Assembly (NCBI GenBank): GCA_964572405.1 | Contig: CAZNGL010000001.1 | Span: 11,553 to 75,552, forward strand | Source: an uncultured Bacteriovoracaceae bacterium | Lineage (GTDB): Bacteria; Desulfobacterota; Desulfomonilia; UBA1062 | DNA: 64,000 nucleotides | Direction of reading: 5' to 3' | In this document: piece after piece, positions 39,430-43,263 of the stretch | How positions within the stretch are numbered: the stretch's first letter is position 1 | Layout: each line of letters begins with the position of its first letter | Notes under the pieces: generated by a model | What the model was told of the DNA's origin: nothing | The model's database searches: none | Seen by the model: the letters and a program-made list of their open reading frames with translations, nothing else | Program-made: the position numbers and the translations under genes

Positions 39430-40956
39430 TCACGCCCCTGCACCCGTTGTCCCGCCCTCATCATGCACCACCGTCAGGAATCCCTTCTGCATGAGCATGC
39501 ACATGACCTCGACACACGGCTTCACGATCCTGTCCGGGTCCATGTGCAGGCCGACTGCGAGGTCTCGTATCAGCTCGTCGAGGGTCCGCTCCCCGTTGCA
39601 GCCCGCAAGCATGGTGGCCATGAGCTTGTCCACGTTCCCGGTGAACGGGAAACCCTTGACCTGCCTGATCCGGGCATTGCTGACCTTCCAGATCCCCTCC
39701 TCGGCCTGCAGGGTCTGCACGAGCTCGTGGTCCGGGGTGAGGAGGAACCGCAGGGAGAGCACGTCCATGCCCTTCTGGAGGATGTCCTGGGCGGCGAAGA
39801 TCCGCAGGATCTGGTCGCTGCAGGGCCCCTGGGCACGGTACTCGGGTGCGCGGTCCGTGAACACCCAGTTCCCTGTGCAGGTCCTGCGCCTGATGATCAC
39901 TGCGCCGAAGCTTATCTTGCCGATGCCGAGGTCTTCGTAGTACGCAAGCCACCGGTCCAGGGTCTCGGGGAAGCGTTCCTGCTCCACGGCGGCATCCCGC
40001 GCGAGCCATGACGATGCATAGGCGATGGGGTCCTCGGTCTCCGAGCAGACCAGCATGATGTCGCACCCGCTCGAATCGAGCCAGGACAGCGGCCGTGCGG
40101 CCCAGTCGCTCTCGTCCCTGTGGTGCCAGTTGACCAGCACCGTGCAGAACCCCCCCTCGGCGAGGAGCCCGGGGGCTCCCCGTATGATGCGCTCGCAGAG
40201 CGTATCGCCCTCCATGCCGCTGTCGCGGTACTGGTAGCGCCCCTTGGGCGATATGACAAAGGGCGGGTTGCAGACGATGAGGTCAAAGGCGCGCCCCCTG
40301 ACCGGGTCGTAGAGGCTTCCCTGGACGAACTCGATGTTGGCCCTGCCGCTGAGTCGGGCGTTCAGGGCCCCGAAGTTCAGGGCCCGGGCATTGATGTCCG
40401 TTGCCGTGACACGCTCGGCGTGGCAGGATGCCCTGATGGACTGGAACCCCGCGCCTGCGCCCAGATCGAGGACGTTCCGGACCTTTTTCCTCACGGTCAT
40501 GTTGGCCAGGGCGATGGTGGATGGACCGACGCCGAGCACGAAATCGTCCGGCGCCTCTTCACCCATGACCTGGGGCAGGAAATCGCAGAGGAGGTAGAGG
40601 TCCTCGTACGCCAGCAGTGCCGCCTCGGCCCGGATGCCACCGCCCTCTTTCCTGAGGAGGCCCACTGCCAGGAGATCCTCGAGCACAACCGATTCCAGTG
40701 CCTCCCTGACCTCATCCTCTGGCATGACTTTGCCGAGAATGAAGAGCCTGACCAGGGTGTTGTAGGGCGAGGGCTTCTCCGTGCGTCTGAGGATTGCATA
40801 GACGTCGGCCTTTCTGGCCAGCGGCCCCTCCGGTGCATCGAGGTTCATGGTCTCGGCGAGGGCGCTCTGGACGTAGCCCCTTTCCACGAGGGTCTTCCGC
40901 AGGAGGTCCACGTCGAGGGGATGGTCGAGGTTGAAGGGGGTGTGCTGTTCGTTCAT
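39430..40956 (-). CDS. Paralogous large class I SAM-dependent methyltransferase (NPPF motif), last gene of the tssBC-fusion operon
   Basis: LDLGAGAGFQ, ATDINARAL, LIVCNPPFV. Collinear with the plus-strand paralog over the full length; their 3' ends are 8 bp apart (convergent). Confidence 0.6.
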   Translation of the reverse strand: MNEQHTPFNLDHPLDVDLLRKTLVERGYVQSALAETMNLDAPEGPLARKADVYAILRRTEKPSPYNTLVRLFILGKVMPEDEVREALESVVLEDLLAVGLLRKEGGGIRAEAALLAYEDLYLLCDFLPQVMGEEAPDDFVLGVGPSTIALANMTVRKKVRNVLDLGAGAGFQSIRASCHAERVTATDINARALNFGALNARLSGRANIEFVQGSLYDPVRGRAFDLIVCNPPFVISPKGRYQYRDSGMEGDTLCERIIRGAPGLLAEGGFCTVLVNWHHRDESDWAARPLSWLDSSGCDIMLVCSETEDPIAYASSWLARDAAVEQERFPETLDRWLAYYEDLGIGKISFGAVIIRRRTCTGNWVFTDRAPEYRAQGPCSDQILRIFAAQDILQKGMDVLSLRFLLTPDHELVQTLQAEEGIWKVSNARIRQVKGFPFTGNVDKLMATMLAGCNGERTLDELIRDLAVGLHMDPDRIVKPCVEVMCMLMQKGFLTVVHDEGGTTGAGA

Positions 40957-40984
40957 TGCATGCTGTGGAAAGACCGTGGCCTGA

Positions 40985-41296
40985 CTATTCAGGGATCACC
41001 AGGTGCGCCCTGATCCGCTCCCACGCGGCAGGGTTTGACACGCCCTGTCCCTCCATGATCCTCCTGATTTCCCCGGGGTCGATCACCAGGGCGCGTGCGA
41101 TATCATCTTCCGTCAGGCCATGAGCCCGCGCATCTTCCATGGCCGGGGCCACCAGGGATCGCTGGTCCTGTGCAGAGGGGGTCGGTTCCGCCCTGTCCCT
41201 GCACTCGAGGCAGAGGTGTAGTTCGTAGCACTCGACGCCGTTGCAACTGGTGACGATGCAGCAGGCCTCCCGGAGTCCGCACCGCTCGCAGCGCAT
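40985..41296 (-). CDS. Small Cys-rich zinc-ribbon protein with a C-terminal sigma-70 region-4-like HTH (putative regulator/anti-sigma-like)
   Basis: 103 aa. MRCERCGLREACCIVTSCNGVECYELHLCLEC has 8 Cys in 32 aa. LTEDDIARALVIDPGEIRRIME resembles the sigma-70 region-4 HTH (TLEEIA..LGISRERVRQIE). Confidence 0.4.
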   Translation of the reverse strand: MRCERCGLREACCIVTSCNGVECYELHLCLECRDRAEPTPSAQDQRSLVAPAMEDARAHGLTEDDIARALVIDPGEIRRIMEGQGVSNPAAWERIRAHLVIPE

Positions 41297-41746
41297 TCAT
41301 CGTCCCTGTTGCGACGGCCCAGTTGTGATACACTCAAGGACAGAGCTCTCGCAGACCACCATCCGGCCGCCATCGGCATCCCTCTTCCACTGCGCGTAGG
41401 CGTCGTCATAGGATTCCGGGTACACGGCGCCTCCCTTAAGCGGCTTCACAACGCTCCTCTTCAGGGCCTCTTTCGTGACGGCCATGTGGGCACGGATGCG
41501 CTTGACGTCCCAGACGGGTCCTGACCGTTCCCGTCCGATGACCTCGATGTGAAAGACACCGGAGGTCCTGGCCTCGGCGAGGTTGTGGATCACGACCCAT
41601 CGGGACAGGGTCCCCTCAGGTGCCATCTCCCAGATGCCGGCCTTGTGGCCGAACAGGGCCTGATCGTCCACGGCATGTGCGGGTGCTACTGCCACGAACC
41701 CTGCGATGAGAGCGAACGCAAGCAGGATACGGCCCTCCAGATCCAT
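41297..41746 (-). CDS. Small secreted hypothetical protein (signal peptide, 149 aa)
   Basis: ATG at 41744-41746 preceded by GGAGGAGG. Signal peptide MDLEGRILLAFALIAGFVAVAPAHA. The larger 41297..42418 track ORF is a composite artefact. Confidence 0.45.
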   Translation of the reverse strand: MDLEGRILLAFALIAGFVAVAPAHAVDDQALFGHKAGIWEMAPEGTLSRWVVIHNLAEARTSGVFHIEVIGRERSGPVWDVKRIRAHMAVTKEALKRSVVKPLKGGAVYPESYDDAYAQWKRDADGGRMVVCESSVLECITTGPSQQGR

Positions 41747-41757
41747 GGGGCCTCCTC

Positions 41758-43263
41758 CTAGTGCGGGCCCCACCTGCCCGCAAGGGCCGTGGCGGGATCC
41801 GCCAGCGACTGGAACCGCACGAGCCGGGCCGTGTCCGTGCCCCTTATGGTGGCAAGCGGCATGATGCCCGCATCCATGATGGCATCCGCGGCTTCCTCGG
41901 TAAGCGCAATCTCGGCGCAGGGTTTGAGCTCGGAGGAACCCTGCGCCTGGTACACGTGCAGGGGCAGGCTGTCCACCTCGAGGACCGATCCGGGATGCAT
42001 GTCCCACCCGTCGAGCACGAAGGACCGTGCCAGGAGGTACGCGCAGGCATAGGCGGGGTTCCCCCACAGGTAGTGTTCGTGTATAGGGGGTCCCGTTATC
42101 TCCTCGAAGTCGAAGGCCTCGGCAGCATCCGTCTCTCGGCCGAACGGCAGGCGCAGGAGAAACCGCGGCATGACGAGCCCGAGATACGGCGCCTCCTTCA
42201 GGTGCCTGAGGTTCTCCCATGCGGCGAGCGTCTCGGGATCGGGGAAGCTCTTCCAGGAGGCAGGGTACGGGTTGCCCTCCAGGGACGTACACCCCACCAG
42301 GCACGGCTGGGCCCGGGCGATGAAGGGCGCGCCGGCGGCGGCGGCAACCCTGGCCATGCTGCCCAGGGTGGATGCATCCTGGTGCCCGAAGCCATAGTCT
42401 CCGATGAGGACGGCCCATGGCTTGTCCCTGGCATCCTCCACGAGCAGGTGGTACACGCCGGTACGGCTCAGGTCCTCGTGTGCGGCGAGGTCGGAGGCGA
42501 GCTCCCGGGCAGAGACGTCGAGGAGGCAGATCTGCAGGGTCTCGTCCGTCTCGATGCGGGAGCAGAGGAACTGCACGCCGCGCCAGGACGCCTCCAGGGT
42601 CTGGAACGACGGGTGGTGCATGACCTCGGCCATGAGGTCCGAGACGGTCCTGTCCAGGACAGCGGTGAGCCGGGCCTGCTCCGGGTCTTCCCGGGCCACG
42701 AGGTGGGGCCTGACCACGGCGGCGAGGAAGGCGTCCATGTCCGGGCCCCCGACCCCTTCCTTTCCGCCCCCGGCCGATGCCTCGCCCACCATGAGATCCA
42801 GCAGGCTGCCGGACGGAGACGGCCGAGGTTCACGGTCCTGCACGACGGCCTGCCCCGCTTCTCCGGTGATCCCCTGCAGCGCCTTCAGGGCGGACTGGAA
42901 GGTCCTGGTGTCCTGGAGCCGGTCTCTCACGTCCCTGAGGGCCTTGAAGACCCCGATTCTCCTGAACAGGTGATCCGGGTGAAAGTCGTCGAGCCCTCCA
43001 AAGCTCACGTTGAGGCCTTCGCCCCCAGATTCGAGCCTCAGACGCACCTTCATCCGCGCAAGCACCTCGTCCACGGTGTCCCGGTCCACGGGGACAGGCG
43101 CGCGTCCCCCCAGGGGTTCGACGACCCCCCGGGACGTCCGGCCGCTGAAATCGCCCAGAATGCAGATCCGGAACGGGGCGTCCTGCGCTGGACGGGCCCG
43201 CGCACCATCCATGGACGAGACCAGCTCCACGCCCAGGGAACCGAACGATATGGGTTTCTTCAT
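41758..43263 (-). CDS. Fused TssB-TssC-like sheath paralog (single 501-aa polypeptide, TssC C-terminal domain absent)
   Basis: Residues ~20-130 align to the local TssB: PFRICILGDFSG/DRD/DDFHP vs PFVVGVLGDFSG/DRD/DDFHP. Residues ~200-500 align to the local TssC: VMHHPSFQTLEASWRGVQFL vs VMHHEDFQKLEASWRGLFYL; WAVLIGDYGFGHQDASTLGSMARVAAAAGAPFIA vs GALIGDYEFGNHPQDLSLLEKISQVAAAAHAPFIS; EHYLWGNPAYA vs DKYLWGNAAYA. It ends at about TssC residue 400. Confidence 0.7.
   Translation of the reverse strand: MKKPISFGSLGVELVSSMDGARARPAQDAPFRICILGDFSGRTSRGVVEPLGGRAPVPVDRDTVDEVLARMKVRLRLESGGEGLNVSFGGLDDFHPDHLFRRIGVFKALRDVRDRLQDTRTFQSALKALQGITGEAGQAVVQDREPRPSPSGSLLDLMVGEASAGGGKEGVGGPDMDAFLAAVVRPHLVAREDPEQARLTAVLDRTVSDLMAEVMHHPSFQTLEASWRGVQFLCSRIETDETLQICLLDVSARELASDLAAHEDLSRTGVYHLLVEDARDKPWAVLIGDYGFGHQDASTLGSMARVAAAAGAPFIARAQPCLVGCTSLEGNPYPASWKSFPDPETLAAWENLRHLKEAPYLGLVMPRFLLRLPFGRETDAAEAFDFEEITGPPIHEHYLWGNPAYACAYLLARSFVLDGWDMHPGSVLEVDSLPLHVYQAQGSSELKPCAEIALTEEAADAIMDAGIMPLATIRGTDTARLVRFQSLADPATALAGRWGPH

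Follow-up and report, generated by a model that had tools for sequence, protein, structure and literature searches.

The 64,000-nucleotide (nt) stretch of DNA analysed here (the window; contig CAZNGL010000001.1, positions 11,553 to 75,552, from an uncultured Bacteriovoracaceae bacterium, assembly GCA_964572405.1) carries on its minus strand a complete type VI secretion system (T6SS) cluster, running from TssJ through ClpV, followed by a run of accessory genes. The region is best explained as two recurrent T6SS accessory components, a single-chain sheath paralog and a pair of methyltransferases, elaborated in a lineage-specific way. The run begins 26 nt past clpV (44125–46761), the last core T6SS gene upstream of it, with a gene of 255 amino acids (aa) to which no family could be assigned and which fills a variable slot (43331–44098). 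It continues on the same strand with a 501-aa sheath paralog in which Pfam VipA and VipB domains are joined (the fusion, 41758–43263), a 149-aa protein with a Pfam DUF5086 domain (41297–41746), a 103-aa Cys-rich protein made of a zinc ribbon and a helix-turn-helix (HTH)-like part (40985–41296) and a 508-aa methyltransferase, MT-B (39430–40956), in which Pfam detected DUF7059, MTS (with an NPPF motif) and DUF7782. The last four of these genes made up the original prediction, which was right about their positions, orientation and lengths and about their 0–28 nt spacing (measured as 11, 0 and 28 nt, the TGA stop of the 149-aa gene abutting the ATG of the 103-aa gene). Its count of four genes after clpV was one too low, as the 255-aa gene comes first, with a 67-nt gap before the fusion gene. 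It also overlooked MT-A (37934–39421, plus strand), a paralog that converges on MT-B, shares its three Pfam domains, is 41% identical to it over its full length and forms with it a conserved A/B pair. The MT-A open reading frame (ORF) can be read from a TTG at 37898, the database protein starting at 37934, and the stop codons of MT-A and MT-B lie 8 nt apart.

The same gene order was found in loci L082 and L083 (fusion 63–65% identical) and L169 (fusion 48% identical), a recurrence far beyond chance. In L169, ClpV is followed by a Stv-domain gene, the fusion, MT-B, a third methyltransferase, convergent MT-A and VgrG. The proposal that the accessory genes form an operon-like series within the T6SS cluster agrees with this conserved synteny and with a scan of positions 37500–44400, which detected neither a consensus promoter nor a terminator within the run, the latter being weak evidence as the method performs poorly for this organism. 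Beyond MT-A, a minus-strand spike and adaptor block identified with Pfam (DUF2169, a 290-aa gene, a second DUF2169 gene and VgrG; 32585–37851) was also present in L082 and L083; because these minus-strand genes continue past MT-A, the methyltransferase pair lies in the middle of the T6SS cluster and not at its end. An 8-bp perfect, GC-rich inverted repeat inside the MT-A tail, between the convergent stops (39385–39402), is a possible candidate for a shared transcript end; a T-run is missing from it, and the terminator scan did not pick it up. A 21-nt inverted repeat (39367–39387 and 39476–39496) is explained by the similar C-termini that the convergent MT-A and MT-B genes encode. An Rfam scan of the whole window revealed no RNA family.

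The fusion proved to be a genuine union of the two sheath proteins in one chain, as originally predicted. T6SS_VipA (PF05591) matched residues 26–121 (E = 1.2e-12, 48.3 bits, Pfam cut-off 24) and the VipB N-domain (PF05943) residues 200–487 (E = 7.6e-65, 219.4 bits, cut-off 27). No Pfam match to VipB_2 was obtained for the fusion, whereas the cluster's own TssC contains this domain. Against the TssC profile TIGR03355 the fusion scored 211.2 bits, below the equivalog cut-off of 271.5 and over profile positions 53–355 only, compared with 737 bits for the TssC of the window; against the TssB profile TIGR03358 it scored 45.8 bits, below the cut-off of 97.25 (profile positions 26–129 of 160). BLASTP aligned fusion residues 179–492 with residues 49–374 of the window TssC (34% identity) and residues 27–145 with the window TssB (29% identity). 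Neither the VipB_2/gp25-like handshake domain nor approximately the first 48 residues of TssC are present in the fusion, which keeps the interlaced TssB/TssC middle layer. In the Pseudomonas aeruginosa sheath, the C-terminal strands of TssC together with terminal donor strands build the inner handshake domain that links subunits, and the N-terminal helix of TssC is part of the outer, ClpV-related sheath domain (PMC5807055). The absence of the handshake domain and of the TssC N-terminus implies that the fusion cannot propagate the sheath polymer, and from its sequence it is probably an accessory protein that binds the sheath without polymerising, for instance as a cap, adaptor or decoy. An AlphaFold2 model of the fusion (pLDDT 63, with a disordered linker at residues 135–174) had only TssC chains of solved sheaths as structural matches; given this pLDDT, the structural role is read from homology and we make no fine structural claims. 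Compared with the TssB/TssC (VipA/VipB) sheath, the fusion shares the TssB strands and the TssC middle-layer region, with part of the outer helical layer, but differs in being a single chain encoded in the same cluster as canonical TssB and TssC.

The fusion is not a peculiarity of this genome. The best 120 database matches were 411–537 aa long, nearly all of them about 500–525 aa, and all but one contained both domains. A scan of species-representative genomes yielded at least 588 loci, with carriers among the Acidobacteriota, Desulfobacterota, Nitrospiraceae, Planctomycetota, Gemmatimonadota, Gammaproteobacteria and others, and where the gene context was visible the fusion gene was usually placed between clpV and vgrG or beside tssB. 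By its linkage across distant taxa, the fusion is a recurrent T6SS accessory (Tag) component. We found no paper describing such a sheath fusion. A truncated sheath paralog present in hundreds of species amounts to a natural "sheath without the handshake domain", which could reveal length, capping or disassembly control in T6SSs beyond the model Proteobacteria.

The second component consists of MT-A and MT-B. Both proteins belong to one family, with the domain order DUF7059–MTS–DUF7782 above threshold in each (48.5, 60.7 and 38.8 bits for MT-B; 53.9, 61.7 and 48.6 bits for MT-A; Pfam cut-offs 27, 23 and 27). MT-B carries the motif CNPPFVISP at residues 229–237, and in 29 aligned homologs covering both paralog types the S-adenosylmethionine (SAM) motif LDxGxGxG and N230-P231-P232 were invariant and F233 nearly so, so that enzymes of both types look catalytically competent. 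With an AlphaFold2 model of MT-B (pLDDT 88.5), the best Foldseek match was GenN, the gentamicin amine N-methyltransferase (E = 7e-21), ahead of AerE (E = 2e-19, TMq 0.55), with PrmC and Rickettsia PKMT2 further down the list; a sequence profile ranked GenN (E = 1.6e-24) and AerE (E = 3.4e-16) in the same order. AerE N-methylates Asn side chains of a ribosomal peptide and PrmC methylates a Gln of release factors, and the AerE study places AerE, GenN and PrmC in one group of related N-methyltransferases, in which the N-terminal subdomain makes contact with the substrate (PMC9060474). Judged by its fold, SAM motif and (N/D)PP(F/Y) motif, MT-B belongs to this structural group, in line with its original assignment as a HemK/PrmC-type N-methyltransferase with an extra C-terminal domain.

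The class I Rossmann fold, the N-terminal substrate-contact subdomain and the (N/D)PP(F/Y) motif are shared by MT-A and MT-B with PrmC/HemK, GenN and the AerE/PoyE-type Asn N-methyltransferases of peptides that ribosomes make and that are modified after translation (RiPPs). Unlike all of these, the two proteins carry an extra C-terminal extension of approximately 230 residues ending in DUF7782 and lie within T6SS clusters, in most cases as a pair of paralogs; in contrast to AerE/PoyE and GenN, neither RiPP precursor nor aminoglycoside genes lie near them. They also differ from PrmC in their N-terminal domain: MT-B reached 60.4 bits against the PrmC profile TIGR03534 (cut-off 199.1) in the Rossmann core only, its motif is NPPF and not NPPY, and its N-terminus is DUF7059. 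The scores of the methyltransferases fell far below every NCBIfam equivalog cut-off for PrmC, PrmB and RsmC, which argues against their being housekeeping enzymes of the RsmC or PrmC kind (methylating RNA or translation factors) that share the locus by chance, an explanation to which the NPPF motif, typical also of rRNA m2G methyltransferases, lends some support. Database labels of the parts of the region read only "methyltransferase", "hypothetical protein" or "sheath domain-containing protein", and a literature search found nothing on T6SS-linked methyltransferases (HemK/PrmC or PKMT types), DUF7059, DUF7782 or DUF5086.

The C-terminal domains of these methyltransferases (approximately 110 residues) pointed towards PqqD. 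Fifteen of 22 homologs matched Pfam PqqD (PF05402) below threshold (best E = 3.2e-5), one homolog had a precomputed PqqD match, the top hit of a C-terminal profile among PDB sequences was PqqD 3g2b (a weak match, E = 0.14), and the C-terminus of the MT-B model consists of strands followed by three helices, an order compatible with PqqD. These sequence and model data are suggestive of DUF7782 being a PqqD-like winged helix and putative peptide-binding domain. Such a domain, together with the finding that among relatives that modify peptides the RiPP enzyme AerE comes closest, would also suit methyltransferases that mature secreted cargo, in which case an effector or RiPP-like peptide would be methylated and then loaded by VgrG/DUF2169, and the pair does adjoin a vgrG/DUF2169/PAAR-like block in the window, L005, L082, L083 and L169. 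However, beside the methyltransferase genes neither a conserved small ORF for a precursor nor any other new recurrent neighbour turned up (the extra clusters were mostly shadow ORFs of known genes), the methyltransferase genes sit among hcp, tssE, tssF and tssB in L085, L086 and the Acidobacteriota loci, at a distance from vgrG cargo, and cargo genes vary between loci while the methyltransferases are conserved. We therefore regard cargo maturation as an improbable function of the pair.

To return to the methyltransferases as T6SS components, their T6SS neighbours were called by tblastn with the window proteins on short contigs, part of the locus set having been chosen via the fusion. Three distant homologs (L084–L086; 42–51% identity) were picked solely for their long contigs, that is, without the fusion as query, and all three lay in T6SS settings: a convergent A/B pair between tssE and tssF in L085 (Planctomycetota), a single copy between hcp and tssE in L086, and a pair among DUF2169, FHA, kinase and PP2C genes in L084 (Syntrophaceae). 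In a metagenome scan with the methyltransferase alignment, nine of 80 loci had T6SS genes beside the methyltransferase, and all nine fell in clades A, B and C of a neighbour-joining tree, which are nearest to the window proteins or form the Acidobacteriota clade; T6SS genes were absent from the scan loci of the remaining, more distant clades. According to the labels of metagenome-assembled genomes (MAGs), the lineages with these methyltransferases in T6SS clusters comprise Desulfobacterota/Deltaproteobacteria, Planctomycetota, Acidobacteriota, Nitrospiraceae, Rokuibacteriota and Gemmatimonadota, and the recurrent linkage across such distant taxa identifies clades A–D as T6SS accessory components. 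MT-A and MT-B of the window fall in separate clades, and one-of-each pairs recur in L082, L083, L084, L085 and L169, indicating that the duplication is old and that both copies have been retained, which fits either a heteromer or two separate targets.

The housekeeping explanation draws further on the wider family, most of which is not linked to T6SS genes and in which the largest set of neighbours is pyrophosphatase and topoisomerase I. Against it stand the embedding of the methyltransferases at different positions of T6SS clusters in several lineages, the retention of the A/B pair and the co-occurrence of two further methyltransferase families, MT3 and PKMT-like (both described below), and we consider chance co-location very unlikely. 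In the distant clades, 14 loci had a proton-pumping pyrophosphatase gene upstream and 10 had a topoisomerase I gene downstream, as judged by eye from the sequences; this branch corresponds to L117–L160 (for example L140 and L148), which are high-GC, apparently actinobacterial contigs with a conserved housekeeping neighbourhood.

The two accessory components met in part of the loci. In 13 of 80 fusion loci, or in nine of the 53 with at least 4 kb of sequence on both sides, the fusion gene had a methyltransferase gene no more than 566 bp away; linkage between the two is not obligatory. The fusion-adjacent enzymes came from two families, the DUF7059 type and a type resembling protein lysine methyltransferases (PKMT-like). 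In Acidobacteriota clusters, a PKMT-like gene (MethyTransf_Reg and PKMT_2nd domains) directly followed the fusion gene in L010, L017, L019, L030, L032 and L035 (about 11.6–15.1 kb), and also in L006 and L023. Where the contig continued (L010, L017, L019 and L035), a divergent DUF7059-type gene came after the PKMT-like gene, with tssB next in L017 and L019; the motif of the DUF7059-type protein of L019 is HPPY, not NPPF. The Acidobacteriota PKMT-like enzyme, with its PKMT_2nd winged helix, resembles the Rickettsia protein lysine methyltransferases PKMT1 and PKMT2; its catalytic family differs from that of the window methyltransferases and it is absent from the window. A C-terminal domain common to the DUF7059-type and PKMT-like enzymes was considered and not supported, as hhalign gave a probability of 2.8% and aligned only a short "DG-R" motif.

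The 103-aa protein combines a zinc ribbon (residues 1–34, with eight Cys in the first 32 residues, six of them invariant in relatives) with a helical, HTH-like part (residues 53–103). The eight-Cys ribbon had been recognized in the original prediction, which also proposed a sigma-70 region-4-like HTH; for this second element, neither sigma-70 region 4 nor an anti-sigma family was matched in Pfam or NCBIfam, and only an XRE-type HTH_31 domain was detected at residues 58–95, below threshold (E = 0.0018, 18.9 bits, cut-off 27). A profile of six ribbons had McsA (8wtb_B) as its top PDB hit, residues 1–36 aligning with 3–38 (a weak match, E = 0.071). Membership of Trm112 or another named zinc-ribbon family was discarded, there being no Pfam match even at E = 10. 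A HMMER search of 1.84 billion representatives gave ten matches in all, with two further full-length clusters at E ≤ 1e-10, as well as separate proteins with the ribbon only or the C-terminal half only, the latter occurring as stand-alone proteins of 50–76 aa. In one protein (P0247), the same ribbon is joined to a hydrophobic C-terminal half that by eye appears to span the membrane. The 103-aa protein was found only in close relatives and, given this narrow distribution, does not count among the recurrent T6SS accessory components.

A lead to its role came from L169, where the same ribbon forms the N-terminus of an MT3-type methyltransferase (P0243) encoded between MT-B and MT-A. MT3 is a PrmA/Methyltransf_16-like methyltransferase (Pfam) whose window copy (22725–23432, minus strand) is 44% identical to P0243 and lies 16.0 kb from MT-B; MT3 orthologs (49–56% identity) adjoin MT-B directly, on its upstream side in L087, L089 and L094 and on its downstream side in L169. 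The fusion of ribbon and MT3, a Rosetta-stone pattern, favours a role of the 103-aa protein alongside the methyltransferases, while being compatible with DNA binding, and on these sequence grounds it is most likely a partner or adaptor of the methyltransferase set. Small zinc-ribbon proteins can serve modifying enzymes: McsA is the activator of the protein kinase McsB, and Trm112 serves Mtq2/HemK2. As in these systems, the gene for a small Cys-rich ribbon protein adjoins that for a HemK-type methyltransferase, to which it is fused in a relative, whereas the weak McsA match, the HTH-like C-terminal half and the narrow lineage set the 103-aa protein apart. The original prediction had instead put it forward as a dedicated regulator or anti-sigma-like factor, a suggestion that the fusion to a methyltransferase makes no stronger than that of a methyltransferase partner. 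In its full form, that explanation takes the protein to be a DNA-binding regulator or anti-sigma-like controller of the T6SS and its neighbours to be the corresponding regulatory module. The weak HTH_31 match, the stand-alone occurrence of the C-terminal half and the anti-sigma-like layout of P0247 speak for it, but the HTH lies below the Pfam cut-off, matches to sigma-70 region 4 and to anti-sigma families were absent, the ribbon is attached to a methyltransferase in the equivalent L169 cluster, and the protein is restricted to a few close relatives, whereas T6SS, fusion and methyltransferases also occur widely where it is absent. A regulatory function of this kind is consequently, in our judgement, rather improbable.

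The remaining two genes of the run encode the 149-aa and 255-aa proteins. The 149-aa protein belongs to DUF5086 (PF16985; E = 1.6e-25, 90.1 bits, cut-off 27), and the earlier claim of a cleavable signal peptide held insofar as its N-terminus (MDLEGRILLAFALIAGFVAVAPAHA/VD) resembles a Sec signal, as judged by eye and without a signal-peptide tool. In T6SS loci, DUF5086 was present in close relatives only, no copy being detected in the other T6SS loci. The idea that DUF5086 is a general T6SS immunity or accessory protein was dismissed, since homologs at 43–54% identity occur in unrelated contexts. The 255-aa gene (GC content 0.565, GC content at third codon positions (GC3) 0.695) matched no Pfam or NCBIfam family. 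Its slot between clpV and the fusion gene is taken by a YopT-like Peptidase_C58 gene in L082 (259 aa; 9185–9964) and L083 and by the Stv-domain gene in L169 (2522–2995); the window gene is not homologous to the Peptidase_C58-like gene of L082. As the slot holds unrelated genes in relatives, the 255-aa gene was rejected as a conserved member of the run, and the position looks like a variable cargo or effector slot. GC3 was 0.70–0.79 in the 255-aa, DUF5086 (0.747) and 103-aa genes, compared with 0.85–0.93 in the fusion, methyltransferase and core genes, and the lower values of the three small genes fit later insertion. DUF5086 is probably a lineage-specific passenger, and both it and the 255-aa gene are probably later insertions. 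The four genes originally proposed to constitute a self-contained module differ greatly in distribution and do not form one, since the fusion is widespread, the methyltransferases occur with or without the fusion, and DUF5086 and the 103-aa protein are restricted to close relatives.

Taken together, the region may be read as a T6SS-dedicated protein N-methylation module accompanied by a non-polymerising sheath paralog, an interpretation that we hold with evenly balanced confidence. In this proposal, MT-A and MT-B would transfer methyl groups to an amide or amino nitrogen within a protein or peptide of the T6SS, both the activity and the protein target being inferred; substrate recognition would occur partly via the PqqD-like domain, with DUF7059 as the N-terminal substrate-contact subdomain; and the fusion would act as a sheath-binding element unable to extend the polymer. 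The leading candidate for the methylation target would be of sheath type, either the sheath paralog or the sheath itself, an assignment that is nevertheless unlikely as matters stand. A bolder interpretation, likewise unlikely, is that control of T6SS assembly or recycling in several environmental lineages (by MAG labels Acidobacteriota, Desulfobacterota/Deltaproteobacteria, Planctomycetota, Nitrospiraceae and others) might operate through SAM-dependent N-methylation of the sheath or sheath paralog, carried out by a dedicated heteromeric methyltransferase pair that would dock on an extended peptide segment with its PqqD-like domains.

Several observations weigh against the proposal of an N-methylation module. 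Neither experiment nor any sequence feature points to a substrate, and the closest solved relative of MT-B, GenN, acts on a small molecule. MT-B itself scored only 12.5 bits against PqqD (E = 0.19; gathering threshold 23.4), and a comparison of the DUF7782 profile with that of the C-terminal domain of the PKMT-like enzymes was not significant. The model of the fusion is of low confidence. Among the 53 informative fusion loci, 41 had no methyltransferase nearby, and L085 and L086 carry methyltransferases with no fusion within 10 kb; the clade A and B members L088, L090 and L093 are not near T6SS genes. Furthermore, the choice of part of the loci by means of the fusion biases the set towards T6SSs, and the methyltransferase tree, built by neighbour joining, is rough and carries no support values.

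Known post-translational control of T6SSs relies on phosphorylation and, in some cases, on ADP-ribosylation-type inputs. The proposed module resembles threonine phosphorylation by PpkA, PppA and Fha in that protein-modifying enzymes are encoded inside T6SS clusters, with two FHA genes in the window and, in L084, a position of the methyltransferases among genes for FHA, kinase and PP2C proteins, but the proposed chemistry is methylation and not phosphorylation. If correct, the module would add a new control or maturation step to the T6SS, methylation would constitute a previously unknown post-translational layer for contractile injection systems, and the large uncharacterised DUF7059/DUF7782 methyltransferase family would receive its first functional context.

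The core of the T6SS cluster lies upstream of the accessory run, with all genes on the minus strand: TssJ (61359–61895), TssK (59980–61356), TssM (about 55865–59794), TagJ (54321–55118), TssA (52939–54324), TssB (52411–52935), TssC (50908–52398), TssE (49715–50182), TssF (47902–49701) and TssG (46862–47938). The ClpV label of the 878-aa ORF that follows is based on sequence and position only; ORFs 71–75% identical to it are found in co-linear arrangement after tssG in L002–L014, and in the syntenic locus L082 the gene at the clpV position encodes Clp_N, AAA and ClpB_D2-small domains.

On the far side of the accessory run, the 290-aa protein flanked by the two DUF2169 genes (35995–36867, minus strand) matched no family and is kept in L082 and L083 (297 aa); judged from its position, it may be PAAR-like or an effector adaptor. 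The vgrG gene is adjoined by a gene with FHA and SLT transglycosylase domains (28745–30811, minus strand) and a double-FHA gene (31067–32149, plus strand). In L084, close homologs of these FHA proteins (52% and 45% identity) are found on the flanks of the methyltransferase pair, where a Ser/Thr kinase and a PP2C phosphatase are encoded as well. Three large ORFs (461, 705 and 316 aa; 24378–28860, plus strand) without a Pfam family are situated between the FHA genes and MT3. Finally, positions 4676–6985 of L084 contain a gene with TPR and B12-binding radical SAM domains and a Methyltransf_23 gene beside DUF2169 and FHA genes.

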